A DNA stretch of 52,126 nt from NCBI GenBank assembly GCA_043819555.1, contig JBDREQ010000015.1, forward strand, positions 1 through 52,126. The letters are read 5' to 3'. This DNA comes from Candidatus Zixiibacteriota bacterium. GTDB taxonomy: Bacteria > Zixibacteria > MSB-5A5 > GN15 > JAAZOE01. This document shows positions 5,795 through 28,426 of the stretch, in pieces. A program made the position numbers and the translations under genes. Within the stretch, counting starts at the first letter, position 1; each line of letters begins with the position of its first letter. Below the pieces are notes generated by a model, which saw only the letters and a list, made by a program, of their open reading frames with translations, ran no database searches and was not told where the DNA came from.

Positions 5795-8700
5795 TTATTT
5801 GGCGCATCCGGGAGGCGGGCCGCCTTTGAAAGCGTGATTTATCAAATAGACGGCGTCACCGACATTAACCTGAGCATCACAATTAGCGTCGCCCATGATG
5901 AACGGAACCGGCGGCGGGCCACTTTTAAATACGTGGTTGATGAGGTAAACGGCATCGCCAACGTTTATGTTACGATCAGCGTTGGCGTCACCTTCCAGCA
6001 TGGTCATGTATATTCTGATATTGGAACAAACTGTTTGAGCTCCAAACAGGTCGGTTGCGACAACTTTCCAGTAATAGTCAAGCCCGTATTCCAATGGTGC
6101 TGTTAAGCTGTACTCCTCGGCAGTCAGATCATAAAATGATTTGGGTGAGGCAAAATCGCTGTATTTGGAATACCGGAGCATATAGGTGAATTCGTCGTTG
6201 AGATCAGGGTCTGAGGTAGCTGTCCAGGTGAAAGTCGGGAGGAGGTTTTCCATCAAGATGGCACTGTCAGGGTTGGTCAATTCAAATGGGGCCGGCGGTT
6301 GATTGGAAGCATTGACGCAGAACGAGGCCAGTTCCGACCATTCGGTGCCATCCTCAAGGGCATCATCGGCGCGAACTCTCCAGTAAGACATCTGGTCTTC
6401 TCCGAGAGATACAGGAACCTGCCATGTAACCGGATTGGAACCACCAGGCTGATCGTCGGCTGAAGCGATGAGCGTAGTCATAGACATATCCGCATATACT
6501 TCATAACTGTAATCTACGGCCAACCCATCGGGATCAGGGGCGGTGTCATGAGAAAGTTCCGGGCTGCTTGACGTCACCATCTCCTCATTATCAGGGGATA
6601 ATCCGACAGGCGGGTCAGGCAGGCCGTTCATGGCGAAATCGGTCGAAACCCAATCGGACCAATATAGACTATTGGAAACTCGAACGCGGACAAAATATGT
6701 AGTTCCGTCCATTAATTCACTGCCCAAATATGTCGCTGATGTTTCACTTCCCGCTACCGGGCCGGTATCCCACATATCGATGAAATACCAGTCAGCATTG
6801 CTGGTTACCTGAATTTGATAATGCGATTGAGGAGCGGCATCACCGTCATAATAAGACCATGAAAAATCGGGAATATGATCGGTCATGTGATCCGGATCTC
6901 CGGGAGCGACACTGATACCGGATGCGCTCGGTGGACTGGGAGGACCGGCCGTGCCGAAGAAATCCATAATATAAGCCATCATACTGTCACGAGAAACAAA
7001 GCGATCGGGATCGTTTCTGATGGCTTCAAAACCAAATGCAAAAAAGACTGTTTTGTAATCCTCTCCGGAATATGAAACGGCGGCGTAATGTTCTCCCGAT
7101 ACATATCTCGCCTCGGCTATTCCGCCGTTGACGGGCGTTATGCGTTCGGTGTTAGTTTGATTATCAGCTCCGGATGAGCCATAAACAACAAGAGTATCAT
7201 TGAGATTCAAAACTTGCGCCCCGGATTCGGCGATAATAATCGGAGAATAAGTTCCAGATTGATATTCTGTTTTGAGGTAGTTGTTTAACAAATCGGGGTC
7301 GTCAATGGCCAGTTGTGACGCGATTCCCTGACCGGTCAGAAAGAGGTTGCCTCCGTCATCAAGATATCTTTTTATAGTAGCAATATTTGTCGAATTTAAA
7401 GTAGTTGCGCGGTCGTCGCCGGTGAACCATATCACGAAATCGTATTTGTTAAGCTCGCTGAGCGGGGGAGGATTAAGGCTGGCATAAGTCCAGACGCTGC
7501 AGGGCATGCGGATGTTGTCAAAGCAACCCTTGAAATAATTCTCATAAGTCTTGTAGTTGTCGTCATCTATGAGGATTATGTTTGTGGAACCGATTGAAAT
7601 AGCGCCGGAAAATTGTTCGGTATCCTGACCGCCATTCCATGAGATATTTATAAAGAATGAATCAATACGGGAGATGTAATCGACCGGGATTTCAAAAACA
7701 AACGGGTCGCCGTAGCTGGTAACTGAATCGAAGGCTGGAATCAAAGCAAAAAATGAGGCATCGTCGGTAATAGTTATTGTCCCATCATCAATTGTTAAAG
7801 TAGCCGAGATATTTTCGAGCGGGGCACCGCCATAATTGGCCAATGTAAAGTACATCTTAATAGTTTCACCGGCTTCCGGAATCCCATCGCCGTCTCCCAA
7901 ATCAGTATCAGAGATTTCATGTCCGCCCTTGTAAGGAGCTCCATTGAGAGGAATGATATTGACAACCATACCTTCAACCATGGGATTACATCCAGGCCAC
8001 GGACAATAAACATTATCAAGGGTATACCAGCTGTTTTGGCTCCCACCCCATCCATAATTCATGTGGTATTGCTTGGTTGTCCCAATTTCACGCCAGCCAT
8101 CACAGACAATGGCGTGGCTATAAATCCTGTAAAGAGTCGGACGGTTTTTATCAATATTTTCTTTGATAAGATCAAACCATCCGTCGGCAGAATAACTGCT
8201 TCTATAGGCTCGACTTGCAGATTCGTCATATTGAAAATACTGAGGGAATATATATTCACCTTCTAACGTATATGCTCCTGAACCACAGGTGCCGTAATTC
8301 ATTTCATAAGCGACACCCATTTCGTAGCTTATTTCCGCTACGCTGGCGTTAGAATGGTCGTAAGTATAAGGGTCAGAGAAATCGGCATAGAGGGTTTGGC
8401 CGGGTGATGATCCGTCGCAATCCGGATCATTATCACCTCCCCAGTAATAAGAATGACTTCCAGTACCTTCCGGCGGCCATTGATGATAATAAATGATTTG
8501 AGATGCCGCCGTTGATACACATCCAACATAGCATCTGCGTCCCAAGTATCCGGTAGGACATAGGCTATTATAAGGATAACTCTGGTGCCATACTGTAGAT
8601 AAAAGGGGACCGACGGTGGAAGTAGTACCCAACAGACCTTTATTCATGGTCTGGTTGAAATCTTTTTCAGATACGGTAAATTCATTCCAGGCTTGTTCGT

Positions 8701-9169
8701 TTTTTCTATCAAATAACGGCTCAGTTCCCGTTTGAGTAGTTTCGAGACTGCCGTAAATTTCGGTGTAAATATCCATGCGGCTTTTTAACACCTGCCGGAA
8801 CATCAGAGACATACCGCCGTCGTCTTCATTGATATTCAATGAAGTTTCCTCGGAGTATGCTTTTACTGGCGCCAATTCACGCAGGGCCGGTACAACAATA
8901 AAGCCGCTGGGGGAGATAGAGTAGTATCTTCCCAAAAGGGTATCGTTTTCTATAATATCCTGTGAATTTTCAATTTCCGGATATAAACTGCCGCCCCAGC
9001 TCCCCAGTTCTTTTACAACCTGGCTGAGCCAATTTTTACATACCTGATCCATTTCATTTTCGGTCGCGATTGTGGCAAAAGCGGAATTGGAAAATAAAAT
9101 CATAATGGCCAAACTAATAAATCCGGCTGTTGCGAATCTACGCGCGTGGTGTAAAAATTCTTTTAACAT
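5795..9169 (-). CDS. Secreted C10 (streptopain-like) cysteine peptidase with propeptide, beta-sandwich domains and C-terminal dockerin-like domain
   Basis: Signal peptide; GPLLSTVWHQSYPYN, VGCVSTAASQIIYYHQWP (catalytic Cys), HAIVCDG (His), YHMNYGWGG; duplicated GDAN...VGDAVYLINH.FK tail. Start placed at ATG 9169 (GGGAG RBS); the ORF track gives 9184. Confidence 0.88.
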   Translation of the reverse strand: MLKEFLHHARRFATAGFISLAIMILFSNSAFATIATENEMDQVCKNWLSQVVKELGSWGGSLYPEIENSQDIIENDTLLGRYYSISPSGFIVVPALRELAPVKAYSEETSLNINEDDGGMSLMFRQVLKSRMDIYTEIYGSLETTQTGTEPLFDRKNEQAWNEFTVSEKDFNQTMNKGLLGTTSTVGPLLSTVWHQSYPYNSLCPTGYLGRRCYVGCVSTAASQIIYYHQWPPEGTGSHSYYWGGDNDPDCDGSSPGQTLYADFSDPYTYDHSNASVAEISYEMGVAYEMNYGTCGSGAYTLEGEYIFPQYFQYDESASRAYRSSYSADGWFDLIKENIDKNRPTLYRIYSHAIVCDGWREIGTTKQYHMNYGWGGSQNSWYTLDNVYCPWPGCNPMVEGMVVNIIPLNGAPYKGGHEISDTDLGDGDGIPEAGETIKMYFTLANYGGAPLENISATLTIDDGTITITDDASFFALIPAFDSVTSYGDPFVFEIPVDYISRIDSFFINISWNGGQDTEQFSGAISIGSTNIILIDDDNYKTYENYFKGCFDNIRMPCSVWTYASLNPPPLSELNKYDFVIWFTGDDRATTLNSTNIATIKRYLDDGGNLFLTGQGIASQLAIDDPDLLNNYLKTEYQSGTYSPIIIAESGAQVLNLNDTLVVYGSSGADNQTNTERITPVNGGIAEARYVSGEHYAAVSYSGEDYKTVFFAFGFEAIRNDPDRFVSRDSMMAYIMDFFGTAGPPSPPSASGISVAPGDPDHMTDHIPDFSWSYYDGDAAPQSHYQIQVTSNADWYFIDMWDTGPVAGSETSATYLGSELMDGTTYFVRVRVSNSLYWSDWVSTDFAMNGLPDPPVGLSPDNEEMVTSSSPELSHDTAPDPDGLAVDYSYEVYADMSMTTLIASADDQPGGSNPVTWQVPVSLGEDQMSYWRVRADDALEDGTEWSELASFCVNASNQPPAPFELTNPDSAILMENLLPTFTWTATSDPDLNDEFTYMLRYSKYSDFASPKSFYDLTAEEYSLTAPLEYGLDYYWKVVATDLFGAQTVCSNIRIYMTMLEGDANADRNINVGDAVYLINHVFKSGPPPVPFIMGDANCDAQVNVGDAVYLINHAFKGGPPPGCAK

Positions 9170-9361
9170 CTGTGCTCCCATCACAAGTTAGATGCCTTCA
9201 ATTAACCCGATGCCAGTTCCTTACAGGTTATCGGCAAATTTAATGACTATTTCAATTTCTTCCAAGACATACGTTTGTATCTTAGAAAAAGAAGTTAGTA
9301 ATTTTGAACGGCGGTCCATGCTGTAGTTCCAATGCAGAACTTTTTAGCCCTCTTTGGATTA

Positions 9362-12186: not shown

Positions 12187-12876
12187 TTACCCCATTCTTT
12201 CCAGACAGGGCTGGCCTGGGCATTGGGCGCAAAATGAATATTGATGGTCGAATAAATGAATCTCATTAGGACCGTGCAGAAGCACCCCTGAGATTGATTT
12301 TAGAGGCTCCATTAAACAGCTTTCACGCAAGGTAATATCAATCTCCTCGGGCTTCAGAAAAACAAACAGCGCCTGTTGGGCACTGACATGCCATCCGCAA
12401 TACCCGGGGCTGTAGCACATAGTTTTGCCTGGCTTTGTATTTCCAATTATATTTTCCCGATACCAGGATGCGGCAAAATCTGAGGCGAGATCAGCTCCGG
12501 CTGATGCCGCGGTATCGAGCATTGAACCGAGGGCGAAGTCATTTCTGGTGAAAAGATCGGATATTTTATTGCATATTTCCTGACCGATAGTCAAGGCAAA
12601 GATGGCCAAATTGTCGGCACGAGGATAAATATCCTCGATGGGGGCAGGTGATTCGTTAAGATCTGTACTGTGGTATATGTTCTCGAAGTTTTCACGCGAA
12701 ATCTCAGATATCAAAAGAACAGGTCTTGCCAGCTGAATAAAAATATCCTGAGCGTTTTTTGCCAAATCTACAATTTCAGGTTTGACTTTGCTTCCCTCGG
12801 GGATACTTTGACCTTTCATAATTAAAGATATCTCAGGAGTAATTTTATCTACCGGGATATTGATAATCTCGCGCAT
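12187..12876 (-). CDS. Stand-alone methionine-synthase activation-domain-like protein
   Basis: ALTIG...LDTAAS...YSPGYCGW...Q..LF...LRESCLMEPLKSISG and a C-terminal CxxCxxxxC. TAATG-coupled to the upstream methyltransferase. Confidence 0.8.
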   Translation of the reverse strand: MREIINIPVDKITPEISLIMKGQSIPEGSKVKPEIVDLAKNAQDIFIQLARPVLLISEISRENFENIYHSTDLNESPAPIEDIYPRADNLAIFALTIGQEICNKISDLFTRNDFALGSMLDTAASAGADLASDFAASWYRENIIGNTKPGKTMCYSPGYCGWHVSAQQALFVFLKPEEIDITLRESCLMEPLKSISGVLLHGPNEIHLFDHQYSFCAQCPGQPCLERMG

Positions 12877-14333
12877 TAACTCCGCTCCGGTAATTTATCC
12901 ATGCCGTTTATTCTTGCTTCAGATAACATTAACCCCTCCATCTCGTCTTTAATGTCATCAGAAATGCGGGAAGGATTATAATTGGCAATCAGTTTATTGA
13001 CTTCGATATTCGCTCGTTCCCCCAGAGTCATTCTGCCTTCTTCGGCCCAGCGAGAACGATTGGCCCGTTCAATAACAGGGCCGGGAAAATGAATTTCCTC
13101 TTTCAAGTATTTTCGGGTATGATCGGCAATGAGAAGATGGCCATCTTTAAGAAGTTCCTCGAAATGGGAAAGACTGGGAAAATCTTCTTTAGGTTCAATG
13201 CCCTGAATCATGCGATGAGTCAGCCCGCAAATCTCATTATCGACGACCAGTTTCTCAAGACTAAAACAACTTTCAAAATCCAGCATGCCGGGGCCGGATA
13301 TACTATTTATACCTGACAGGGCGGCCATGGTTGCGCCCATGGACGTTTCCAGGCCGGCCTGGGCATCGAGCTGTTTGGCGTCACTGAGTCCAATATATGC
13401 TTGAGTCGGAAGTCCGAGATATTTGCCAATTTCGTTGTAGGCGCAATCAATCATTTGGGTTTCGACAGCGCCCATCGGAGTTGTCTCATAGCGAATGTCG
13501 AATATGGCCGGGGAACCTCCATATACAATTGGAGCGCCCGGGTAGGCGAGCTGACTAATGACAACACCGCTTAAGGTCTCGGCCGTATGCTGGATAAGCG
13601 TGCCGGTCAGTGTCACAGGAGAAATAAAACCGGACAGAGGCATGGCAATAAATTCTACAGGAATTGAATATTTGGCACAATCAAGTACATTTTGAGACGT
13701 GACATCACTCCATTTTAAAGGAGACGTCGGACAACAGGAAAACATAGTAAGCGGTTTATCCCTGAGATTTTTTTCATTGCCGCGAACCGCCAGTTGAAGA
13801 TTTTTCATAATTTCAAAGGCTTTAATGGTAAACGCTCCCGTAACAACCGGTTTTTCACAAAACAGTAAACTCAGAAAAAGACGATAGCTGTCGGATATTT
13901 TCTCATTGACGTCGGCTGGAATAATTGCGGTACTTTGCAATGATATATGATTAAGCTGGCTCATTAATTGGGCATATTTGATATAATCAGCCGTTGTAGG
14001 ATTCCTGAATTTGTCAGACCCCTGATCCTGAATAAATAGCGCCGCCGAACCGGGAGTATAATTGATATTATATCCGGATAAATCAGCGGCCTCTTCGCCC
14101 ATCACATTATAAAATTTAATAGAAGATGGAGCCGCCGCCAGGGATTTATCGATAAGTTCATCTTTGATTCTTACTTTATGTCCCGAGTCATCCACATGAG
14201 CGCTATGATCCGAAAGCAGTGATACGATTTCGGGATTATGAATAGTCACTCCGATTTTGTCCAATATATCGCGGGCTTCGGAAATTATTCGTTCTATCAG
14301 AGTATCATCGAGGAATTTCAATATGGGGCGCAT
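12876..14333 (-). CDS. MttB-superfamily (trimethylamine/quaternary amine):corrinoid methyltransferase, non-pyrrolysine type
   Basis: TSPLKW, PVTLTGTL...AETLSG, PGAPIVYG, GLPTQAYIGLSDAKQLDAQAGLE, GMLDF...LEKLVVDNEI. No in-frame TAG; Leu appears at the Pyl-equivalent position. Confidence 0.92.
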   Translation of the reverse strand: MRPILKFLDDTLIERIISEARDILDKIGVTIHNPEIVSLLSDHSAHVDDSGHKVRIKDELIDKSLAAAPSSIKFYNVMGEEAADLSGYNINYTPGSAALFIQDQGSDKFRNPTTADYIKYAQLMSQLNHISLQSTAIIPADVNEKISDSYRLFLSLLFCEKPVVTGAFTIKAFEIMKNLQLAVRGNEKNLRDKPLTMFSCCPTSPLKWSDVTSQNVLDCAKYSIPVEFIAMPLSGFISPVTLTGTLIQHTAETLSGVVISQLAYPGAPIVYGGSPAIFDIRYETTPMGAVETQMIDCAYNEIGKYLGLPTQAYIGLSDAKQLDAQAGLETSMGATMAALSGINSISGPGMLDFESCFSLEKLVVDNEICGLTHRMIQGIEPKEDFPSLSHFEELLKDGHLLIADHTRKYLKEEIHFPGPVIERANRSRWAEEGRMTLGERANIEVNKLIANYNPSRISDDIKDEMEGLMLSEARINGMDKLPERS

Positions 14334-15049: not shown

Positions 15050-17041
15050 ATGAGTATGGCTTCTGGCAATGATATATATATAAGGTCCATGCGATCGATT
15101 GGCTACGTAAAGAGAGAAAGCGCGACCGCGGATACATATCAACAATTGGGATTTATAAGCGGGCTTGAGATTCATCAGCAATTATTGACTGCTAAAAAAT
15201 TATTTTGCCGCTGCCCGGCCGGTTTATATCAGAACGGCGATGATTATGACGCTGAGCTGGTCCGGCATATGCGCCCGACTCTCAGCGAGCTGGGCGAATA
15301 CGACGGTACGGCGTTAATGGAATTTAAAACGCGCAAGAATATTATCTATCGTATCAAGGACGAATCGGCCTGCACTTATGATATTGACGATACTCCACCC
15401 TTTGCCATAAATCGCGAAGCGCTGGATAAGGCCATAGAAATTGCATTACTCCTCGGCACCAATATTGTCGGAGAATTGCATATCACCCGTAAACAATACC
15501 TTGACGGATCGATCCCTACCGGATTTCAGCGGACGGCCATTGTCGGCATCGAAGGCGAGATACCTTTCGGCGGGAAGAGAATTCGAATTATTCAATTAAG
15601 TCTGGAAGAAGATTCATGCCGCGAAGTGTCAGATGAGGGTCATTGGCGGACTTACACGACCGACAGGCTTGGGATGCCATTAATCGAGACCGTAACCGCG
15701 CCGGACATGAAAACCCCGGATGAAGTGGCACAGGCCGCTCATTATTTGCGGTATTTAACTCGCAGTTGTGACAGTGTCCGGACCGGAATCGGGGCCGCTC
15801 GAGAAGACGTAAATGTAAGCATAAGCGGAGGCACAAGGGTTGAGATTAAAGGAGTGGCACATATTCGCCGGATACCAGAACTGACACATAATGAAGCATT
15901 CCGACAAAAAGCGCTTCTATCTATAAAGGATGAGCTTTCATCTTTAAGTATCGTTCAAAATGAATGGAGTCCGTCATCGGTTGATTTGACTCAAAATAAT
16001 ATCATTCCGTTAAAGGGTATATTGAATGAAATTAGAAAGAAGAATTTTCAAATAATTGGAATAAATCTGCCGGGATTTTATGGTTTGTTATCATTTTTTA
16101 CTCAGCCGGGAAAAACATTTGCCGACGAGTTGAGCTGCCGATTGAAAGTAATCGCCTGCATTGAAAGACCAAATATGATTCATTCGGAAGAGATTGTGGA
16201 TCTACCCGGAAATGAAATGGTAAATAAAGAGGTATGGGATAAACTGGCAAGTCATTTCAAGGCCGATGAAAAAGATGCCCAATTGATTCTGTGGGGTAAC
16301 GCGGATGATATCAAAACGGCAATTGAGACTATTGAAGAAAGATGCCGTCTGGCTTTCAATGGAGTACCCAATGAAACAAGAAAGGCATTGCCCGATGGAA
16401 CGACTATTTTCGAACGAGTTTTACCCGGCCCGGACAGGATGTACCCCGACACCGATTCGGCTCCGATTCCAATAGAAGACGAGCATATTGAGAGCATAAA
16501 GAAGGATTTGCCTGTTTCAGTTCGAGATCGTGTACTTCAGCTACAAGGATGGAACGTCCCGGCGGATACATTCGATTATATACTGCGAAGAAACCTCGCA
16601 TGGCTGATAGAGAAAATTATCAATGATTTCAATCTTCCGCCCAAGTATATTGGGACCTTATTCGGCCATACTTTCCGCGGTATTGAAAGGAAAGTCACGC
16701 CATCCGCCGATTTTAATGATTACTCTATATACGGCTTGTTTAAGTTTATTAATGCTCAGGGATTAAAAATCGAAATAGCGGAAGCCATGCTTCCTGAACT
16801 GTACGCTCACCCCAAAATGGTTTTCGATTCTATCTTAAGCATTATCGGATATAAAAAATGCGTGCGGGAATCAATAATTGGCCTGATTCCAAATCTCATA
16901 AATAAATTTGACTCGATAAAACGAAATATATCTCCGTTTGCGAAACGTGACTGGGTGATGGGGCATCTTAGAAAGATGGCTTTGGGAAATGTAGCTCTCA
17001 ATGAAATCGCGAAGACGGTAGAAGAGGAGTGCGCGAAATGA
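15050..17041 (+). CDS. gatE: Glu-tRNA(Gln) amidotransferase subunit E (archaeal GatDE type)
   Basis: SGLEIHQQL..KKLFCRCP, MRPTLSELGEYD..A..E, RKQYLDGSIPTGFQRT, LEEDSCR, DRLGMPLIE, RTGIGAAREDVNVSI.GG.RVEIKGV, AspRS-like insertion, GVPNETR...RVLPGPDRMYPDTD. Confidence 0.92.
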   Translation: MSMASGNDIYIRSMRSIGYVKRESATADTYQQLGFISGLEIHQQLLTAKKLFCRCPAGLYQNGDDYDAELVRHMRPTLSELGEYDGTALMEFKTRKNIIYRIKDESACTYDIDDTPPFAINREALDKAIEIALLLGTNIVGELHITRKQYLDGSIPTGFQRTAIVGIEGEIPFGGKRIRIIQLSLEEDSCREVSDEGHWRTYTTDRLGMPLIETVTAPDMKTPDEVAQAAHYLRYLTRSCDSVRTGIGAAREDVNVSISGGTRVEIKGVAHIRRIPELTHNEAFRQKALLSIKDELSSLSIVQNEWSPSSVDLTQNNIIPLKGILNEIRKKNFQIIGINLPGFYGLLSFFTQPGKTFADELSCRLKVIACIERPNMIHSEEIVDLPGNEMVNKEVWDKLASHFKADEKDAQLILWGNADDIKTAIETIEERCRLAFNGVPNETRKALPDGTTIFERVLPGPDRMYPDTDSAPIPIEDEHIESIKKDLPVSVRDRVLQLQGWNVPADTFDYILRRNLAWLIEKIINDFNLPPKYIGTLFGHTFRGIERKVTPSADFNDYSIYGLFKFINAQGLKIEIAEAMLPELYAHPKMVFDSILSIIGYKKCVRESIIGLIPNLINKFDSIKRNISPFAKRDWVMGHLRKMALGNVALNEIAKTVEEECAK

Positions 17042-18420
17042 GTGATATATTCAAAGGATATAAAGGCGCGGCTCTGGAGGCTCTGAAAAAATTCAATATG
17101 CGGGTTTGGGGAGAAGCGCTGGTTGAAACCACTCGCGGAGATTTTTCGGGAATAATTCTGCCGCGCGCGGAAAGTGATGACGATCGGCATATCGTATTGA
17201 AATTAGCGACCGGATATAATGTCGGAATTACAGTAGAAACTATAACAGCCATGGGCGAGACGGGATACAAAGAAGCGCATTATAAAATCCCCGAAAAGGA
17301 ATTCCCCTATAGCGAAGGCAAGCCAAATGTTAAACTATTCGGAACAGGCGGAACGATTGCCTCGAGGCTCGATTATCGAACCGGTGCGGTGATTCCGGCT
17401 TTCTCCCCGGGTGAATTGTATGGAGCCGTTCCGGAACTGGCAGATATTTGCAATTTGACCACCGAGAAGCTATTTGCCGTATTTAGCGAAAATATGGGGC
17501 CAAAACAATATATCGCTCTTGCCAAAGCAATAGGCAAAGAGATTGAGAACGGAATTGACGGAATTGTTATTGGCCATGGTACGGATACGATGCATCATAC
17601 CGCGGCGGCCCTGTCATATATGATACAAAATTCACCGGTTCCGATTGTTTTGGTGGGATCGCAGCGTTCATCGGACAGGCCGTCCTCGGATGCGGCTCTG
17701 AATCTGATGCATGCGGCCAAAACCGCCGGCGAATCGGATATTGCCGAAGTGGTTGTCAGTATGTTTGGGCCGACGTCGGACCAGTACGGGCTTTTGCACC
17801 GGGGAACGCGCGTTCGAAAAATGCACTCCTCTTATCGTTCGACTTTTAGGACAATCGGCGACATTCCTATCGCTACTGTCGATCGAGATAAAATTACGCC
17901 GATTCGGGATGATTATAATCGCCGGCGGAAGGACAGAAATGTCAACGTCGTGCCGGTTTTTGAAGAGCGGGTGGCGATGGTTTATTATTATCCCAACATG
18001 CATTCCGATATAATTGATTCTTTGGTGAATAACGGTTATCGGGGAATCATTATTGCCGGAACCGGATTGGGGCATGTCAATAAGCCGGTTTATCCAGCCA
18101 TAGAGCGGGCCACTAAAGCCGGGGTTGCGATTTATATGACAGTCCAGACGCTGTGGGGTTATGTTCATATGTTCGTTTATGACACCGGTCGCGATTTGAT
18201 GAGCAAGGGAATAATCCCGACAGAAAATATGCTCCCAGAAGTGGCATATATCAAACTCGGCTGGGCGCTGGGGCAGACTGATGATCTGGAGGAAGTCAAA
18301 AAAATAATGTTGACGCCTATTTGCGGAGATATTACTGAGCGGGAGCCGTATGATGGATATCTGATTTATCAGGGCGGAACGCCGGAAATACGAAAATTCC
18401 TGAAATCAAATATTCGATAG
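17038..18420 (+). CDS. gatD: Glu-tRNA(Gln) amidotransferase subunit D (glutaminase subunit)
   Basis: N-terminal GatD domain (VLKLATGYNVGI) and asparaginase-like motifs GTGGTIASRLDYRTGAV, HGTDTM, GSQRSSDRPSSD, KMHSSYR, GTGLGHV. ATGA overlap with the gatE stop and GAGGAG RBS. Confidence 0.93.
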   Translation: MSDIFKGYKGAALEALKKFNMRVWGEALVETTRGDFSGIILPRAESDDDRHIVLKLATGYNVGITVETITAMGETGYKEAHYKIPEKEFPYSEGKPNVKLFGTGGTIASRLDYRTGAVIPAFSPGELYGAVPELADICNLTTEKLFAVFSENMGPKQYIALAKAIGKEIENGIDGIVIGHGTDTMHHTAAALSYMIQNSPVPIVLVGSQRSSDRPSSDAALNLMHAAKTAGESDIAEVVVSMFGPTSDQYGLLHRGTRVRKMHSSYRSTFRTIGDIPIATVDRDKITPIRDDYNRRRKDRNVNVVPVFEERVAMVYYYPNMHSDIIDSLVNNGYRGIIIAGTGLGHVNKPVYPAIERATKAGVAIYMTVQTLWGYVHMFVYDTGRDLMSKGIIPTENMLPEVAYIKLGWALGQTDDLEEVKKIMLTPICGDITEREPYDGYLIYQGGTPEIRKFLKSNIR

Positions 18421-18443: not shown

Positions 18444-19637
18444 TTATCTAAATCGAAATGAGACGCCGGTGGTTATTGAATAATCATCAAAATTGTATAA
18501 TGGCTTATTTGAGTTGTTGTTCATATGCTCGATATTAAGCACCGGTTCGATCAAATACTCATGATTTAATTTGACAGGGCATTGAAGGCTTAAATAGAAT
18601 CGATTGACACTATCTTCACGTGGTTTATCTTCAGTTTTGACTTCCAAATATGTTCGATCAAGTCCATCGGCATCATATCGATTGGAAGTGGTCAAAAATC
18701 GTTTATTCCAATGGCCGTATCCAGTGTTTACTATTAATCCTGGTATGGCAAACGATTTAATATTGACTGAAGCGCTTTGCCCTTCCCAGACTGTCGCCCA
18801 AGGTGATAAATATCCGGTTGAAATATCCCACAAAAATCCGCCTCGATAATTTTGAAAATTCTGAATGGTATAGATCAGATTCAGGCCAGTTTTTCTGCCA
18901 AGCGAACGGGATAAACGTGGTGATAGATAAAGCACCCATAAATCGTCTTTAGTGTCGGCGATATCTTTAATCCACATAATATCATAGGGAATGGGTTCGG
19001 GCAAATCGGGGCGCGACAGCGGCCAGCCATCTCCGGTCAGGTTGGCGTCTTTATATAAATAATTGGTACGTCCGTATCCGGCCTCAAAATCAAAACTTGT
19101 CTGCATGGGGAGAACAGCATTTATTCCCATAATAAAATCAAAATCACGCTTATAATCGTTGCCGGTATTGATATAAACCGTCGAGCGAAAAGAAAGGCCG
19201 CCTCGAATATGGAAGCGCGGATTGAGTTGGAATCCGCCAATTAATTTTACCTCGCCAAAATTATTATCGACACCACTAAAATCACTATGATATTTCCGTC
19301 CGTTTAAGCTTGCCGCAAAATAGAGGGAAAATCGTGATATCTCAGATAGGGGGATATAGGTTACATTAAATCTGCCAAAAATATTGCTCAGGCCTATCGT
19401 TTCACGATAATATGTTTGCTCTCCTGATAAAGACACTTTCAGTGAGGGGAGAGGAATATAATCAACTATCGCCGAAGTTATTGAACAGGCGTCATACGTA
19501 GAACTGCTGTCCTGAAGCAGATTACTGCTTGATTTAGTACTGGCGGAAAAATCGATAGAGATTTGTGCCTGAAGAGCCGGCGAGAGAAAAGCTAAAATAA
19601 AAATTAAAGCGGAGAGGATTGAAACTATATGCCGCAT
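18444..19637 (-). CDS. Putative outer-membrane beta-barrel protein of unknown function
   Basis: Signal peptide, many amphipathic Tyr/Gly/Ser-rich strands, C-terminal strand YSITTGVSFRFR. Confidence 0.65.
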   Translation of the reverse strand: MRHIVSILSALIFILAFLSPALQAQISIDFSASTKSSSNLLQDSSSTYDACSITSAIVDYIPLPSLKVSLSGEQTYYRETIGLSNIFGRFNVTYIPLSEISRFSLYFAASLNGRKYHSDFSGVDNNFGEVKLIGGFQLNPRFHIRGGLSFRSTVYINTGNDYKRDFDFIMGINAVLPMQTSFDFEAGYGRTNYLYKDANLTGDGWPLSRPDLPEPIPYDIMWIKDIADTKDDLWVLYLSPRLSRSLGRKTGLNLIYTIQNFQNYRGGFLWDISTGYLSPWATVWEGQSASVNIKSFAIPGLIVNTGYGHWNKRFLTTSNRYDADGLDRTYLEVKTEDKPREDSVNRFYLSLQCPVKLNHEYLIEPVLNIEHMNNNSNKPLYNFDDYSITTGVSFRFR

Positions 19638-20047
19638 ACGCCACCTGCGCAGCCGTTGGCAATATTACCCAATCCAATTCCATTGCCGACTCCGAAATCT
19701 ATGCCGAATGTAAAGCCTATCCGTTGATTGGAATGGCAGCGAACATGGAATTCGCGAGCCCCAAAGGCTTCCCGATTATTCAAATAGAGCTTTGTGGAGG
19801 TATTATTACTTAAAGATTCGTTTAGCGACTGACCCAGAATGCCTGGGGCAGCCTTATTTTCAGCGTTTTTATTTTCAAAATCATCCGGAATGCCGTTGCC
19901 GTCATTATCACGATAATTATCGTTGATCCCGTCACCGTCAAAATCGATATATATTGAATTATATATTTTCATCGAGTCTTCGGCATGGGCTGAATCCGTA
20001 GAATATATAAAACTAAGCGCCGTAAATGCTAGAAGCAATAACTTCAT
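19625..20047 (-). CDS. Small exported protein with DxDGDG Ca-binding-like repeats and C-terminal CAGGVC
   Basis: Signal peptide (…SAHA|ED); IDFDGDGINDNYRDNDGNGIPDD; Gly-rich tail ending GCAGGVCGI; overlaps the next gene by 13 nt. Confidence 0.75.
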   Translation of the reverse strand: MKLLLLAFTALSFIYSTDSAHAEDSMKIYNSIYIDFDGDGINDNYRDNDGNGIPDDFENKNAENKAAPGILGQSLNESLSNNTSTKLYLNNREAFGAREFHVRCHSNQRIGFTFGIDFGVGNGIGLGNIANGCAGGVCGI

Positions 20048-20128: not shown

Positions 20129-20159
20129 TTCAGGGATAGATTTTTAGCCAATCCCTGAA
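20129..20159. other. Intergenic inverted repeat (RNA hairpin without U-tail)
   Basis: TTCAGGGAT-N13-ATCCCTGAA about 20 nt downstream of the selenoprotein stop; no poly-U on the minus strand. Confidence 0.5.
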
Positions 20160-20178: not shown

Positions 20179-21573
20179 TCATAAACAATTGGGCGGATTG
20201 CCGCCTTTGAATATATGATTTATTAAAAAGACAGCGTCACCGATATTGACATTATTATCGCAATTGGCATCAGCCCTTTCTGCGGGATCGCTTGGAGGAC
20301 CGCCTTTGAAAATAATATTAATAATGTAAACGGCGTCGCCGACACTTATGCCATAGTCGCCGTTAGCATCACCCCGATTGTGAACGGTTATCTTTAGATT
20401 AGGCGACCATATACTTTCGGCGTCCATTTCATCCTTGACTTTTACACGGTAATTATAATTTCCGGCCATGTTCCAGGCGTGCGATTCAATTGTTTGCGTT
20501 CCCGATTCCACAGGACCAGTCCAATCAGATATATTTCCGTCGCCCCAGTCGAATTTGTACCATAAATCCTGGCCGTCAGGATCGGTGCCATTGGCGGCGA
20601 TTTCGTACGTTCCGTAGGTTATTCCGATTGACGGACCGCTTATATCCATAGGCCGGGGCGGAGTCTGATTTATAAATTGATTGTTGATTATGGAAACCGC
20701 AATTCCGAGATTACCTTCGCTTAGCCAGTTAAGCGTTACGGACAGGCTGATATTCTTGACTTCTCTTACGCCGGAGGATTGAGAAGCGACAACGTAGTTG
20801 GAAAGATTGCCGGACAGGTCACCCGGTGATGCGCCGACCACTACTTGATAACCCCCGTCAACAAAAACGGTAGGAGCGGCTTGTAAATTAAAATCATCAA
20901 AAACCCGACGACTGGCTTCGTTGTTTTTATTATAGATAAGGGAAGCATGATACACATTGTATCCGGCCGCTTGCAACGCTGCTAACGCCTCACGGGCGTA
21001 AGGGCAAAATGGTCACGTGGTTCGCGTCCCTTCTTCAAAGAGAACCGAATGGGTGTAGTTGCCATCACCTCCTGCAATGCCGGTTTCACCCGGATGAGCT
21101 CCGGTTACAGCGTCCGGGAAATAAGCTGTAAATGGGCCGCTTCCGTCACCCGGGTAAGACAATCTGAATTCACCGTCATTTCCCGAAATAACCGCGATAA
21201 CCATGATATTATCTTCGGCAATATCGCCATACCCATGCGTCGAGCCGCTCCAAACCCGGGTCTCTTCAAAAGTGCCAAGATAAGGAATGGAAAGAGTATC
21301 GTAAAAAGCAAAACCAAGAAATCCATTTTCATATGTCGAGTAATTATAATCTCTCCAGCGAGATACCGGTTCAATTACGTAAACTCGAAGAGTGGCATCA
21401 TAATTGGCGCTAAGGGATTTTTTCGACGGTGAATCTTTATGGACGTTAACTTCTGAATTTATTTTTCCATCTGTTATGGTAATTTCCTTAGATGAATACC
21501 CGGAGTTATCAGCCAATATTCCTCCGCAGACAAGAAATAAAATCAGGATTGCATTGCAACAAACTCTTGTCAT
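20179..21573 (-). CDS. Candidate secreted selenoprotein, 464 aa: Omp28/thioredoxin-like UxxC domain, PKD-like domain, dockerin-like tail (Sec at TGA 21015-21013)
   Basis: ORFs 21013..21573 and 20179..20976 are in the same frame, separated only by one TGA and 12 sense codons: HSVLFEEGTRTT-TGA-PFCPYAREALAALQAAGY. Later APTVFVDGG (cis-Pro loop), DPDGQDLWYKFDWGDG (PKD-like) and a dockerin-like tail. SECIS-like hairpin follows the TGA. Confidence 0.85.
20980..21006 (-). promoter_or_regulatory. Putative bacterial SECIS element
   Basis: mRNA after UGA: CCAUUUUGCCCUU-ACGCC-CGUGA-GGCGU-UAGCA. 5-bp upper stem (20999-20995 with 20989-20985), 5-nt loop with GU at positions 2-3 starting after an 18-nt spacer, possible lower UGC/GCA pairing. 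Confidence 0.7.
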
Positions 21574-21652
21574 GATTTGATCTCCGAAAAGTAAAAAGTC
21601 AAGTCTTAATACGACCCTAAAATTGGGCCAGCCCAGTCTCTTTTATGCGAAT

Positions 21653-21680
21653 AATATACCAATTTAGTTTTCTTTGGCAA
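21653..21680 (-). promoter_or_regulatory. Putative sigma70-type promoter of the selenoprotein gene
   Basis: Minus strand TTGCCA-N16-TATATT with TGn extended -10, about 80 nt upstream of ATG 21573. Confidence 0.5.
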
Positions 21681-24677: not shown

Positions 24678-26690
24678 ATGAGGCTATTAAAGTTTACAAG
24701 CGTGATAGCGGTGTTTTACCTTCTTCTCTTTGGAAGTATATTGCAGGCCGCCGCAGAGTACAAATATCGCAATCCTGAAGCAGTTAATACAGACCTTCAG
24801 AAGATCGCCGGGGATAATAAGGATGTGGCTAAGTTGCATAAACTGGCCGTGACGCCGGGGGGGCGAGATTTTAATTTATTGGAATTAAGTACTGATAAAT
24901 CAAAAAAACCGGCCATTTTGGTAGTCGCCAATATGGAAGCGAATTATCCGATTGCGACCGAGGCGGCTGTTAAATTAAGCGAGCTACTGGTTGGGGATTG
25001 GAAAGAAGAATTAAATTCCCACAACTGGTATATCGTGGCGATTGGCAATCCTGATGGTTATGCGAATTTCTTTGACAAGCCACTTTATAGTAATTTTCAA
25101 AATGAGAAACCTTTCAACGATGATAAAGATGACGCGACCGATGAGGATGGCCCGGATGATTTGAATAATGACGGATATATCACCCAAATGCGCCAGAAAC
25201 ATCCCGAAGGGCGATGGCTGCCGGCTGCGAACAATCCTCTATTTATGAAGAAGGCTAAAGGGGAAAAGGGTGAAATTGGCATGTACCGGCTGTTTCCCGA
25301 AGGATTGGATAACGATAAAGATGGCGAAATAAATGAGGATGGTCCGGGAGGAATCAATCCGGGGCATAATTTCCCGCATAAATTCCAGCACTATACCAAA
25401 ACCGATGGTATGTTTGCGGCTTCGGAATCAGAATCGCGCGCGATATTGAATTTTGCTTTTGCCCATCCAGAAATTGCGATGGTAATTGTCCTGGGCCGGA
25501 GCAACACGCTTCAAGCGGTTCCGCCCAGTTCTAATCAGGGCGAATCCGCCGGTGGTAAACATAAATTGCCGGAATGGATGGCCCGCCGAGCCGGAGTTGA
25601 TCCGGAACAAAAATACGATATCGCTGAGATAGTCGAAATGGCAAAGGCCTTTTGGGGAAATGACGACGTTACTGAAGAGGACGTCGTTCAGTTTCTTGGC
25701 CTTGGCGCTGTGGTTAATCCCAATAAAAGCGATATTGCGTACTGGGAAGAGATTACCAAGAAATATGAAGAGTTTTTGAAAGAGGCAGAGCTTGATGCCA
25801 AGAGTTTGGATAAACCGAAGTTCTCAAATGGCAGTGTTGAGGAATGGGCCTATTACCAATATGGCGTCCCGACTTTTTGTATGGATTTCTGGAGTTTGCC
25901 CAAGCCTGAAAAGAAAAAAGATGAAGCCGACAGCGGCGCGGTAACTCCCGAAGACATTGAAAAGATGTCAAACGAGGAGTTTATTGAGCTGGGCGAAGAA
26001 AAAATATCGGAAATTCTCGAGAATGCCGGCGCACCGGAACAGTATTCGGCTGAAAGAGTCATCAAGGGTTTGGAGGGCGGCCGGATGGATACCAAGCGAA
26101 TGGCTAAAATGCTGGAGCGGATGAAAAAAGATGATGACGAGGATGTAGGCGGTTCCGAAACGGAAGAAGCTCTTTATGCGCAAAATCCCAACGCTTTTAT
26201 ATCATGGACCGAATATGATCATCCGACATTGGGCAAAGTAGAAATCGGAGGGATGATTCCGTATTCAACTGTTCTGCCTCCGGCTGATAAGGTCGATGAT
26301 CTTATCACCAGGCAATTGCCATTCCTGCGCAAATTAGTGTCAATGACTCCGTCTATTAAAATTAAACAGATAGATATCGAAGAACTGTCAACCGAGATTT
26401 GGAAGATTGAAGCATGGGTCGTAAATAACGGTTATTTGCCTTATCCGACTTATCAGGGTAAGCGATGCGGCAGGCCGGCTCCGGCGGTGGTTACCATCGA
26501 TGATAAGAATATAGAATTGCTGCAGGGGAAGGTGCGGACCGGATTGGATATTTTACCCGGGTCCGGCGGTTATGAAAAGGTTCGCTGGGTAATCAAAGGA
26601 CCTGGCGGAAAGGACATTACATTGAAAGTGTCTGCGCCAAGCCTTGGCGAAGATTCCCGGTCGATAACTTTGAAAGGAGGCGCCCAATGA
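24678..26690 (+). CDS. Secreted M14 carboxypeptidase-like protein, probably catalytically inactive
   Basis: M14 fold landmarks (TPGGRDF, KPAILV, NPDG, ESRAI) and Asp-rich DxDxDG/EDG inserts, but HxxE is replaced by ExxY and the other ligands are absent. Confidence 0.8.
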   Translation: MRLLKFTSVIAVFYLLLFGSILQAAAEYKYRNPEAVNTDLQKIAGDNKDVAKLHKLAVTPGGRDFNLLELSTDKSKKPAILVVANMEANYPIATEAAVKLSELLVGDWKEELNSHNWYIVAIGNPDGYANFFDKPLYSNFQNEKPFNDDKDDATDEDGPDDLNNDGYITQMRQKHPEGRWLPAANNPLFMKKAKGEKGEIGMYRLFPEGLDNDKDGEINEDGPGGINPGHNFPHKFQHYTKTDGMFAASESESRAILNFAFAHPEIAMVIVLGRSNTLQAVPPSSNQGESAGGKHKLPEWMARRAGVDPEQKYDIAEIVEMAKAFWGNDDVTEEDVVQFLGLGAVVNPNKSDIAYWEEITKKYEEFLKEAELDAKSLDKPKFSNGSVEEWAYYQYGVPTFCMDFWSLPKPEKKKDEADSGAVTPEDIEKMSNEEFIELGEEKISEILENAGAPEQYSAERVIKGLEGGRMDTKRMAKMLERMKKDDDEDVGGSETEEALYAQNPNAFISWTEYDHPTLGKVEIGGMIPYSTVLPPADKVDDLITRQLPFLRKLVSMTPSIKIKQIDIEELSTEIWKIEAWVVNNGYLPYPTYQGKRCGRPAPAVVTIDDKNIELLQGKVRTGLDILPGSGGYEKVRWVIKGPGGKDITLKVSAPSLGEDSRSITLKGGAQ

Positions 26691-28426
26691 TTTCAAGGAT
26701 ATTAATGATTAGCGCCTGCACCGTCATTCTTCTCACCTCTTCAGCGTTAGCAGGAAAGGTCAATTTATCTTTTGATCATTATTATAATGAGGCAGAGATC
26801 CATGACGCGCTTAAACAGTTAAATAAAGCGTATCCTGAATTAACTGAATTGCGTTCTCTTGGCAAGAGTGAAGAAGGCCGCGATATAATGCTGTTTACGA
26901 TTAATAATTCGAACACCGGAAATGACCTGGAAAAACCGGCCGTGTACGTTGACGGAACCATTCACGGGAATGAAATCCAGGCGACCGAAGTCTGTCTATA
27001 TCTGGCCTGGTATCTGCTTGATTCTTACGGTACCAATGAAGTAATGACGAAACTGGTTGATACACGCGCGTTTTATATTGTTCCCATTGTCAATGTGGAT
27101 AATCGCGAGAGGTTGATGTCTCAACATAAAAACTATGGAATCGGGCGCAGCGCTATAGTACCTTACGATGATGACCGTGACGGGTTGTTCGATGAAGATG
27201 ATTATGATGATGTTGATGGCGACGGTGAAATTCTTCAGATGCGAATTCGCGATCCCCAGGGAAATTTTAAAACACATCCCGATGATCCTCGAGTCATGGT
27301 GCGCATTAAGCCCGGAGAAAAAGGTGAATGGCGTCAGCTTGGGCGGGAAGGAATCGATAACGACGGCGATGGGCGGATTAATGAAGATACCCCTGGTTAC
27401 CTTGATATGAATCGCAATTATGGGTTTAAATGGCAGCCGCCTTATGTTCAAAGCGGGGCAGGCGATTTTCCGCTATCAGCTAAACCAAATGAGGCCATCA
27501 CCAAATTTGTCTTAACCAAGCCAAATATATGTTTTGATTTCGCGTTTCATAACTCCGGCGGTTTGTGGGTGCGCGGCCCTGGGTCGAAGCTGGCCGGTAT
27601 GTACTCGCCCCGCGATGTTGCCGTCTATGATTATCTTGGCGGAGAAGGCGAAAAAATCGTTCCCGGGTACGAATATATTATAGGCAGTTTGGATATGTAT
27701 ACCACTCACGGCGATTTCGATGAATTTATGTATTCCGGACTCGGCGTTTTTGGCTTTGTTGGCGAGCTTTATATGGGCGGCGAGCAGATGACATATCGCC
27801 CTCGTGATGTGCAAAAGGAAATCCCTGATTACTGGGGAAATACCTACGAAACGGACCGTGACCGGGAAAAAATGTTATTTAGCGATCGAGTTTACCAGGG
27901 TAATCTATTCAAAGACTGGAAGAAATATAATCATCCCCAATTGGGTGAAATTGAAATTGGCGGTTGGAGGACGTATGCCAGTCGAATTACTCCGCCTTTT
28001 CAATTATTGGAACAAGCGCATCGCTGTGCGGCTATGGTTATTTTCACGGCTCAGAATACACCCGAAGTATCCCTTGAATTGATTGAAGTCAAGGATTTGG
28101 GTGACGGTATAAAGCGGGTGCGAGTGGCCGCAAAGAATTCCAGGGCTATTCCAAGTTTGTCGGATAAAGCCATGAAAAATAATCTGACGCGTAAGGATAT
28201 TTTCAAAATTGAGGGACGGGGCGTTGAAATCGTAGCCGGCGGATTTGTCTCTGATTTGCTTTATGATCGCGTTGATTATGTCGATCATCGTCCCTTTATA
28301 CTATTTTCAAACGTTCCCTCGTTTGGGATTCGGAACATAGAGTGGATTGTCAAAGGCAGTGGCAAAGTAACGGTGACCTTTGACGCGGTCAAGGCAGCCA
28401 ATCGAACTCTCAATATTGATTTGTGA
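26687..28426 (+). CDS. Secreted M14 zinc carboxypeptidase
   Basis: GKSEEGRDI, DGTIHGNE (HxxE), DMNRNY, AFHNSG, VGEL; Asp-rich inserts; ATGA-coupled to the upstream paralogue. Confidence 0.9.
   Translation: MISRILMISACTVILLTSSALAGKVNLSFDHYYNEAEIHDALKQLNKAYPELTELRSLGKSEEGRDIMLFTINNSNTGNDLEKPAVYVDGTIHGNEIQATEVCLYLAWYLLDSYGTNEVMTKLVDTRAFYIVPIVNVDNRERLMSQHKNYGIGRSAIVPYDDDRDGLFDEDDYDDVDGDGEILQMRIRDPQGNFKTHPDDPRVMVRIKPGEKGEWRQLGREGIDNDGDGRINEDTPGYLDMNRNYGFKWQPPYVQSGAGDFPLSAKPNEAITKFVLTKPNICFDFAFHNSGGLWVRGPGSKLAGMYSPRDVAVYDYLGGEGEKIVPGYEYIIGSLDMYTTHGDFDEFMYSGLGVFGFVGELYMGGEQMTYRPRDVQKEIPDYWGNTYETDRDREKMLFSDRVYQGNLFKDWKKYNHPQLGEIEIGGWRTYASRITPPFQLLEQAHRCAAMVIFTAQNTPEVSLELIEVKDLGDGIKRVRVAAKNSRAIPSLSDKAMKNNLTRKDIFKIEGRGVEIVAGGFVSDLLYDRVDYVDHRPFILFSNVPSFGIRNIEWIVKGSGKVTVTFDAVKAANRTLNIDL

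Follow-up and report, generated by a model that had tools for sequence, protein, structure and literature searches.

The closest described relative of the gene reported here is the predicted selenoprotein family GOS_C, for which 74 sequences with selenocysteine (Sec, U), 312 cysteine (Cys) homologues, a thioredoxin (Trx)-like fold and no functional evidence are given in the text of Zhang and Gladyshev (2008, PMC2398784). In the main text of a review from 2026, the curated family NF045500 is equated with "hypothetical protein GOS_C" and ascribed the motif UxxC (PMC13188914). Here, a related but differently built gene is described from a stretch of 52,126 nucleotides of Candidatus Zixiibacteriota bacterium (assembly GCA_043819555.1, contig JBDREQ010000015.1, positions 1 to 52,126 of the forward strand; hereafter, the window). 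The gene lies on the minus strand, is divided in two by gene callers at an in-frame TGA, and in all likelihood codes for an exported thioredoxin-fold selenoprotein. A hidden exported redox selenoprotein had been proposed in a preliminary description of the locus; this reading is now supported by the Sec genes of the source genome, the Sec/Cys column of the homologues, an export signal recognized in the sequence and the thioredoxin fold.

The first open reading frame (ORF) of the gene, 186 codons long from ATG 21573-21571, ends at the in-frame TGA (21015-21013), beyond which the same frame stays open for 277 further codons up to the terminal TGA (20181-20179). The total product has 464 residues, with EEGTRTT-U-PFCPYAREAL around the in-frame TGA. 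Gene callers place the start of a second ORF, of 265 amino acids (aa), at TTG 20976, with 12 codons intervening after the TGA; no GGAG-like ribosome-binding motif can be discerned by eye in the 12 bases before this TTG. In public databases, the halves are recorded as separate predicted proteins, P0002 (265 aa) and P0122 (186 aa), each 100% identical to its part of the gene. The layout of the split gene given in the preliminary description, i.e., the 186-aa ORF, the TGA, the 277 residues past it and the confinement of the signal peptide and ribosome-binding site to the first part, is all seen in the sequence. The signal peptide was recognized by eye rather than with a predictor, from its positive N-terminus, hydrophobic core and small residues at -3/-1. 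At the same time, TGA is not reassigned in this organism; it is an ordinary stop codon here, terminating 7 of the 36 long ORFs of the window (TAA terminates 16 and TAG 13), and the selenoprotein gene itself also ends with TGA.

The genes for Sec synthesis and insertion, i.e., selA, selB, selC and selD, which had been suggested as a check of the selenoprotein reading, are all present in the source genome (79 contigs, 97% complete). SelA is matched with 401 bits, and the C-terminal wing domain of SelB with 66 bits in a 641-codon frame adjoining selA. A single tRNA-Sec with the anticodon TCA is found by aragorn and scores 74.3 bits with the Rfam model RF01852 (gathering score 47). SelD (389 bits; G000:C63:76059-76982, L011) contains one in-frame TGA, which makes it probable that the selenophosphate synthetase is itself a selenoprotein. 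Of 201 genomes sampled from the phylum, 194 have SelA above the cut-off; SelA being nearly universal in this sample, its presence does not separate the genomes with Sec forms of the gene from those with Cys forms.

The position of the in-frame TGA was followed through homologues from two sources. Full-length database proteins of 413-536 aa, gathered by a word-indexed search (alignment A1, n = 15), have Cys in column 187 in 14 cases, always as C-x-x-C. Nine more homologues of about 260 aa start 15-20 residues past the column, the pattern expected if their genes, too, are cut at TGA. In public sources, close homologues bear names indicative of candidate division Zixibacteria. In a six-frame search of the 201 genomes, in which stops were read through and counted, 103 listed matches span residue 187, of which 55 have a single TGA and 48 have none (hand tally). 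The 30 loci returned hold 36 gene copies; when their DNA was translated with TGA marked and aligned, a single column across these copies (30 genomes) was found to hold TGA in 22 and TGT/TGC in 14, always within U/C-x-x-C. The TGA copies come from different genera, and Sec and Cys paralogues stand in tandem in several genomes. A maximum-likelihood tree was built from 33 copies, after removal of three fragments shorter than 330 aa from the 36; the Sec/Cys label changes on it at least six times, and five of these changes are forced by well-supported branches. The occurrence of Cys or TGA in this column, named earlier as support for Sec, is thus borne out in both the database and the genomic copies. 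Overall, the comparison of sequences indicates that the in-frame TGA very probably encodes selenocysteine.

The prototype of the bacterial selenocysteine insertion sequence (SECIS) located within an ORF is that of E. coli fdhF. The bacterial SECIS (bSECIS) model in the main text of the 2026 review comprises a loop of 3-9 nucleotides (nt), an upper stem of at least 4 base pairs (bp), a G in the first two loop positions, a distance of 16-37 nt from the UGA to the loop and a minimum free energy of -7.5 kcal/mol or lower (PMC13188914). These rules were applied through an own implementation and not through bSECISearch. The hairpin of the window conforms to the model: its core, ACGCC-CGUGA-GGCGU, begins 13 nt past the UGA, the loop CGUGA (G at position 2) has a spacing of 18 nt, the stem has 5 bp, and the energy is -8.3 kcal/mol. 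When the energy bar is relaxed to -4 kcal/mol, 18 of the 22 Sec copies pass versus 2 of the 14 Cys copies. The loops found in the family are CGUGC/CGUGA/CGUGU, GGUCU, AGUU or GUU, so a G followed by a U recurs.

Further indications of a conserved structure come from an ungapped alignment of the 22 Sec copies, in which an 8-pair helix has 66.5% of its cells paired versus 54.2% in shuffles. The covariation score of the hairpin is 0.384, a value reached by none of 500 shuffles (mean 0.170), and sliding the partner columns gives 0.039-0.195. The mean local folding energy is -8.4 for the Sec copies versus -4.7 for the Cys copies (Mann-Whitney p 0.0016, a value that overstates the difference, the sequences being related). 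It is plausible that the hairpin is a weak SECIS, its testimony being secondary to that of the Sec/Cys column. A stable hairpin (-15.8 kcal/mol) also follows the Cys codon of a Cys-form tandem paralogue in genome G171 (L018:3614-3667, plus strand); it may be the leftover of a SECIS from a recent Sec-to-Cys switch.

The catalytic domain has a thioredoxin fold according to an AlphaFold model of residues 40-310, built from a 68-sequence alignment (predicted local distance difference test, pLDDT, 94.3; predicted template modelling score, pTM, 0.89). With this model, Foldseek returned thioredoxins (E about 1e-3), and an exhaustive structure aligner (VIA) gave 3gnj_A as the best match (Z 11.3, root-mean-square deviation 2.2 over 105 residues, model residues 38-231); the remaining 49 rows shown, with Z values as low as 8.8, consist almost entirely of thioredoxins and thioredoxin-like proteins. 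Since the match spans model residues 38-231, the thioredoxin core of the model is made of the N-terminal strands and residues ~176-270, with the beta-rich elaboration arranged around it. U187 (model residue 148) immediately precedes helix 151-163 (helix 1), and the invariant Pro234 (model residue 195) immediately precedes strand 196-199 (strand 3); in the model, these are the standard places of the nucleophile and of the cis-Pro loop. More residues are invariant or nearly invariant in the 68-sequence alignment, namely N122, H175, D239, G241, E68, S71, R72, W108 and E180, suggesting a pocket larger than the bare motif. A match to glutaredoxin at residues 183-240 stays below the threshold (17.6 bits vs. 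22.9).

The wider relationships of the domain were inspected by an exhaustive HMMER search with residues 55-300 as the query, which returned 646 cluster representatives at E<=0.001, 460 at 1e-10 and 67 at 1e-30; five further fragments of 179-189 aa among them end at the Sec column. Many of the representatives match in two pieces with their order swapped. Thus, residues 161-277 of P0164 match residues 44-161 of the selenoprotein (41% identity, E 4e-23), and its residues 47-171 match residues 171-299 (36% identity, E 7e-19). The same P0164 aligns to positions 2-249 of the 264 of the Omp28 model NF033782 (E 2.6e-9, 36.7 bits, below the cut-off of 150), and another homologue, P0148, touches PF11551 with 17.3 bits. 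In view of the swapped pieces of P0164 and its alignment to NF033782, the most fitting description of the domain is that of an Omp28-like thioredoxin-fold domain that has been circularly permuted. Hence, from the Omp28/thioredoxin-like assignment made earlier, the thioredoxin fold is retained, whereas the link to Omp28 is only remote and passes through a circular permutation.

Two formal memberships were considered and rejected. With regard to the Omp28 family (NF033782/PF11551), the selenoprotein scores 15.4 bits vs. 150 for NF033782, a weak match local to the motif region, and PF11551 has no match in the protein or in the genome. With regard to NF045500, the selenoprotein (P0001) gives no match at E<=1 and its homologue P0003 scores 14.8 bits vs. 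200; the model also misses the gene in its own genome.

The tail of the protein consists of two further modules (Table 1). PF18911 and PF00801, the models that match the first of them, are annotated in homologues in precomputed Pfam data; the second contains two D-x-N-x-D calcium-loop repeats, GDANGDYGISVGDAVY and ADANCDNNVNIGDAVF. The PKD-like and dockerin-like domains of the preliminary description fared differently: the dockerin exceeds the Pfam cut-off, and the PKD-like module falls just under it.

Table 1. Features of the selenoprotein gene and its two companion genes (positions in the window).
Feature	Position	Strand	Details
Promoter-like site	21651..21680	-	TTGCCA, 16-18 nt spacer, TATATT/TATTAT; ~80 nt upstream of the start codon; consensus match only, no evidence of function
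Ribosome-binding site	21582..21585	-	GGAG, 8 nt before ATG; read from the sequence
Whole selenoprotein gene	20179..21573	-	464 codons and terminal TGA, Sec as codon 187; from ORF, translation and homologue alignments
Signal peptide, residues 1-21	21511..21573	-	MTRVCCNAILILFLVCGGILA followed by DN, probable cleavage after ILA; read from the sequence
UGA as putative selenocysteine U187	21013..21015	-	First residue of U-P-F-C; from frame and homologue column
Cys190 codon	21004..21006	-	Putative resolving residue of UxxC; nearly invariant in the 68-sequence alignment
SECIS-like hairpin	20982..21002	-	CUUACGCC-CGUGA-GGCGUUAG; 5-bp upper stem, U-U mismatch, 2 further pairs
Catalytic domain, residues ~55-300	20674..21411	-	Predicted thioredoxin fold with beta-rich elaboration; circular permutant of an Omp28-like domain
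PKD-like module, residues 328-387	20413..20592	-	PF18911 25.5 bits vs. cut-off 27; PF00801 21.5 vs. 23.5
Type I dockerin-like C-terminal module, residues 401-454	20212..20373	-	PF00404 31.1 bits vs. 22.9; 36.1 bits in the genome-wide scan
Cassette gene 2, 140-aa secreted protein	19625..20047	-	D-x-D-G-D-G...D-G-I-P-D acidic motif, C-terminal G-C-x-G-G-x-C
Cassette gene 3, 397-aa outer-membrane beta-barrel	18444..19637	-	Signal peptide; 13-nt overlap with gene 2

In the order of transcription, the selenoprotein gene is followed by the genes for a 140-aa and then a 397-aa protein, for neither of which a Pfam scan finds a family. The 397-aa protein is present in 23 of 29 related loci when flanks of only 1.5 kb are searched with tblastn. 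A survey of 20 wider regions and the window (21 in total) by ORF clustering finds the barrel in 19 regions and the small protein in 18. The five regions of the window's own family have the order enzyme, small protein, barrel; in 12 regions of other families, the small protein and the barrel come first and one to five enzyme copies follow, all in the same direction. The exceptions are one region with a divergent arrangement, one with no called small protein and two lacking both. In one region (L077, G113:C20:36000-55999), four or five tandem enzyme copies, a mixture of TGA and Cys forms, are located behind one small-protein/barrel pair. Outside the three-gene cassette, the flanks differ between families.

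The 397-aa protein falls among outer-membrane beta-barrels in the ESM Atlas, with TM 0.64-0.83 to clusters carrying BBP2_2 or OMP_b-brl; the Slam barrel family occurs in a 19% minority of one of these clusters, which serves as a lead only. In an alignment of 18 sequences of the small protein, the D-x-D-G-D-G..D motif is invariant, a second motif, D-x-D-x-D-G-I-P-D, is nearly conserved, and both Cys and both Gly of the C-terminal ...G-G-C-x-G-G-x-C are invariant. The enzyme probably acts together with the products of these two companion genes. A 9-bp inverted repeat with a 13-nt loop, TTCAGGGAT ... ATCCCTGAA, is located between the stop codon of the selenoprotein gene and the next gene (20129-20159, minus strand); it was read by eye, is followed by no T-run and is absent from the list of the terminator scan.

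Across the source genome, 60 Dockerin_1 matches and 8 cohesin matches are above the cut-offs, and most of the listed homologues that bear a dockerin are peptidases. These sequence matches suggest an extensive surface system of cohesins and dockerins whose cargo is chiefly peptidases. The window itself harbors a gene for a 1129-aa C10 peptidase with a dockerin-like tail (5795-9184, minus strand) and two tandem genes for M14 carboxypeptidases (24678-28426, plus strand).

Adjacent genes of the GatE type (GatB_N, 663 aa) and the GatD type (Asparaginase and GatD_N, 463 aa) occupy positions 15050-18420 of the window on the plus strand, and such a pair also adjoins the cassette in relatives belonging to the same family; the GatD/GatE pair is regarded as archaeal, yet the genome here is bacterial. 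A 485-aa gene of the MTTB family (trimethylamine methyltransferase-like; 12876-14333, minus strand) has an uninterrupted frame with no in-frame TAG and is, hence, presumably a non-pyrrolysine member.

The following mode of operation is proposed for the selenoprotein. SelB and tRNA-Sec would read the UGA at 21015-21013 as Sec, guided by the SelB-bound hairpin ~13 nt downstream, and the Sec translocon would export the protein. The mature form would comprise the permuted thioredoxin-fold catalytic domain, with U187-P-F-C190 where helix 1 begins, and after it a short linker, the PKD-like module and the C-terminal dockerin. Outside the cytoplasm, the selenolate of U187 may attack a disulfide, or another oxidized sulfur or selenium species, after which Cys190 would resolve the mixed selenenylsulfide in the manner of the other thioredoxin-fold enzymes with UxxC. 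The chances that the enzyme operates by disulfide exchange can be put at about even. The dockerin probably tethers the enzyme to cohesin-bearing surface proteins. The 140-aa protein with its C-x-G-G-x-C motif is a candidate substrate or relay, and the barrel a candidate exporter or anchor.

A more elaborate scheme, improbable in its entirety, takes the cassette for a dedicated outer-membrane redox device, made up of the small secreted protein, the barrel and one to five thioredoxin-fold exoenzymes of the Sec or Cys form. The barrel would export or hold the small protein, whose Cys pair would be the relay or dedicated substrate of the selenoenzyme, and the dockerin would park the enzyme on cohesin scaffolds beside dockerin-tagged peptidases. 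If this were true, selenium chemistry would serve to open disulfide-locked substrates or to handle sulfur species outside the cell.

A number of observations weigh against Sec insertion at this codon, against the role of the hairpin or against the redox function. The remaining full-length database homologue, P0006 (453 aa), has Gly in column 187 (WGPYC), which may reflect either a true substitution or the translation of a TGA by a code that assigns it to Gly. One TGA-form genome, G109 (93% complete), gives no SelA match. The hairpin is short, varies between three or four registers across the family and overlaps the codons of a conserved R-x-A-L, so part of its conservation is at the protein level. 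The strict bar of -7.5 kcal/mol is passed by as few as 8 of the 22 Sec copies (and by 1 of the 14 Cys copies). The 71-nt region at the UGA is not unusually stable (z 0.27, 119 of 200 shuffles folding equally well or better), and an Rfam scan of 20900-21100 at E<=10 yields chance-level matches only and no SECIS family. As to the cassette, the small protein gives a poor model when folded alone (pLDDT 59.1). A search for redox partners covered 90 ORFs that flank the cassette in 16 wider regions out of the 20, excluding L063, L064, L076 and the flank in the window itself; no TlpA-, DsbD- or CcdA-like gene recurs among these ORFs. One AhpC/TSA-domain protein is encoded ~2 kb from one cassette, and flavoproteins of the pyridine-nucleotide-disulfide-oxidoreductase type flank two cassettes of different families (L066 and L067). 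With no conserved electron donor beside the cassette, a reductase role is left without an identified source of reducing power, which is the chief weakness of regarding the enzyme as a reductase.

The alternative that survives best accepts a genuine selenoprotein and assigns it a job other than protein-disulfide exchange, e.g., that of a surface peroxidase or detoxifier, or of a protein that binds or reduces species of sulfur, selenium or a metal, with the barrel acting as a porin for the substrate. The lack of a conserved reductase or electron donor beside the cassette would fit such a role, as would the invariant or near-invariant polar residues N122, H175, D239, E68, R72 and E180, suggestive of a larger active site, and the Cys pair of the small partner combined with its acidic, calcium-loop-like motif. 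Still, there is no specific pointer to any of these substrates, and the fold together with the motif is of the thiol-disulfide oxidoreductase type, so this alternative is regarded as unlikely, albeit far from negligible.

The remaining alternatives deny the presence of Sec. Readthrough of the UGA as Cys, Trp or Gly by near-cognate or other suppression could draw on the Gly of P0006; it is very improbable in a genome with a complete Sec pathway and a TGA within selD, with TGA used as a normal stop elsewhere in the window, with a SECIS-like hairpin present and with the codon at the place of the nucleophilic Cys of CxxC, where Sec is classically found. Termination at the TGA with the production of two proteins, a 186-aa secreted fragment and a 265-aa protein from TTG 20976, agrees with the existence of ORFs of both sizes and with a weak promoter-like match near 20985-20947. 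But the break would interrupt the active-site motif, the one thioredoxin fold requires both halves, the second ORF carries extracellular modules with neither a signal peptide nor a visible ribosome-binding motif before its TTG, and the Cys-form relatives are single uninterrupted genes, making this possibility extremely improbable. Finally, the split made by gene callers (P0002, P0122) is what a nonsense mutation, a pseudogene, or an assembly or sequencing error would also produce, but such an origin is next to impossible and offers no explanation for a TGA that shares one column with Cys in 22 of 36 copies of different genera, for repeated Sec/Cys changes on the tree, for a hairpin that goes with the TGA forms and is lacking in most of the Cys forms, or for an identity to the same-genus orthologue that is higher after the column (66.9%) than before it (53.8%).

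The preferred reading of the gene is, then, that of an exported selenoenzyme which would work like many UxxC thioredoxin-fold selenoproteins. By curated score or domain order, it is not a member of NF045500/GOS_C or Omp28, and in a profile scan it fits no NCBIfam selenoprotein model. The main text of the 2026 review (PMC13188914), where another name may have been used, contains none of the terms Omp28, dockerin, PKD and Zixibacter, and the same is true of the main text of the deep-Sep paper. A literature search found no paper joining selenoproteins with Omp28 or Zixibacteria with dockerin, and, judged by title, none of the papers on selenocysteine and dockerin deals with dockerin selenoproteins. 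Compared with the literature found, the novelty lies in the permuted domain order, in a selenoenzyme bearing a PKD-dockerin tail and in the outer-membrane cassette of three genes. The earlier statement that no characterized bacterial selenoprotein with this architecture is known needs to be read with the qualification that a related predicted family, GOS_C/NF045500, has been in print since 2008.

Within its bacterial phylum, which has been little studied, the family is common, and Sec is used by roughly half of the copies there (hand tally). As annotation cuts its members at the TGA, databases hold them as unrelated fragments of ~186 aa and ~265 aa, exemplified by P0002 and P0122, the five further fragments of 179-189 aa and the nine proteins of ~260 aa. 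Recognition of the family leaves the picture of Sec decoding unchanged. It adds an exported, presumably surface-tethered member to the bacterial selenoproteome, provides natural Sec/Cys pairs with which the reasons for the retention of Sec can be studied, and draws attention to an unexplored outer-membrane cassette.

Among the known systems, GOS_C, i.e., NF045500 or "Omp28-related selenoprotein", shares with the present family a predicted thioredoxin-like fold, UxxC and many Cys homologues, along with local similarity around the motif (the homologue P0003 aligns to profile positions 35-65 of 377). However, the motif of NF045500 is located near the N-terminus, whereas here it is found at residue 187, after the other half-domain, and the tail of the present protein consists of PKD and dockerin modules. 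The Omp28 outer-membrane lipoproteins (NF033782, PF11551) are remote relatives connected via the intermediate P0164; unlike them, the selenoprotein has an ordinary signal peptide with no lipobox obvious by eye.

The thioredoxin-, glutaredoxin- and DsbA-like UxxC selenoproteins resemble the present one in that Sec takes the place of the leading Cys of CxxC where helix 1 begins (Table 2 of PMC2398784), and frequent Sec/Cys interconversion is common to both; the differences are the extra beta-rich half-domain, the export together with PKD and dockerin modules and the scores below every curated cut-off. The hairpin is similar to the bacterial in-ORF SECIS, as presented in the main text of the 2026 review, in its location directly past the UGA, its small loop with G-U at positions 2-3 and its 18-nt spacing (PMC13188914), but its stem is short and weak, and most relatives miss -7.5 kcal/mol. 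With the dockerin exoproteins of the cellulosome type, the protein shares a C-terminal Dockerin_1 module above the cut-off, whereas the cargo carried here would be a redox selenoenzyme and not a glycoside hydrolase.

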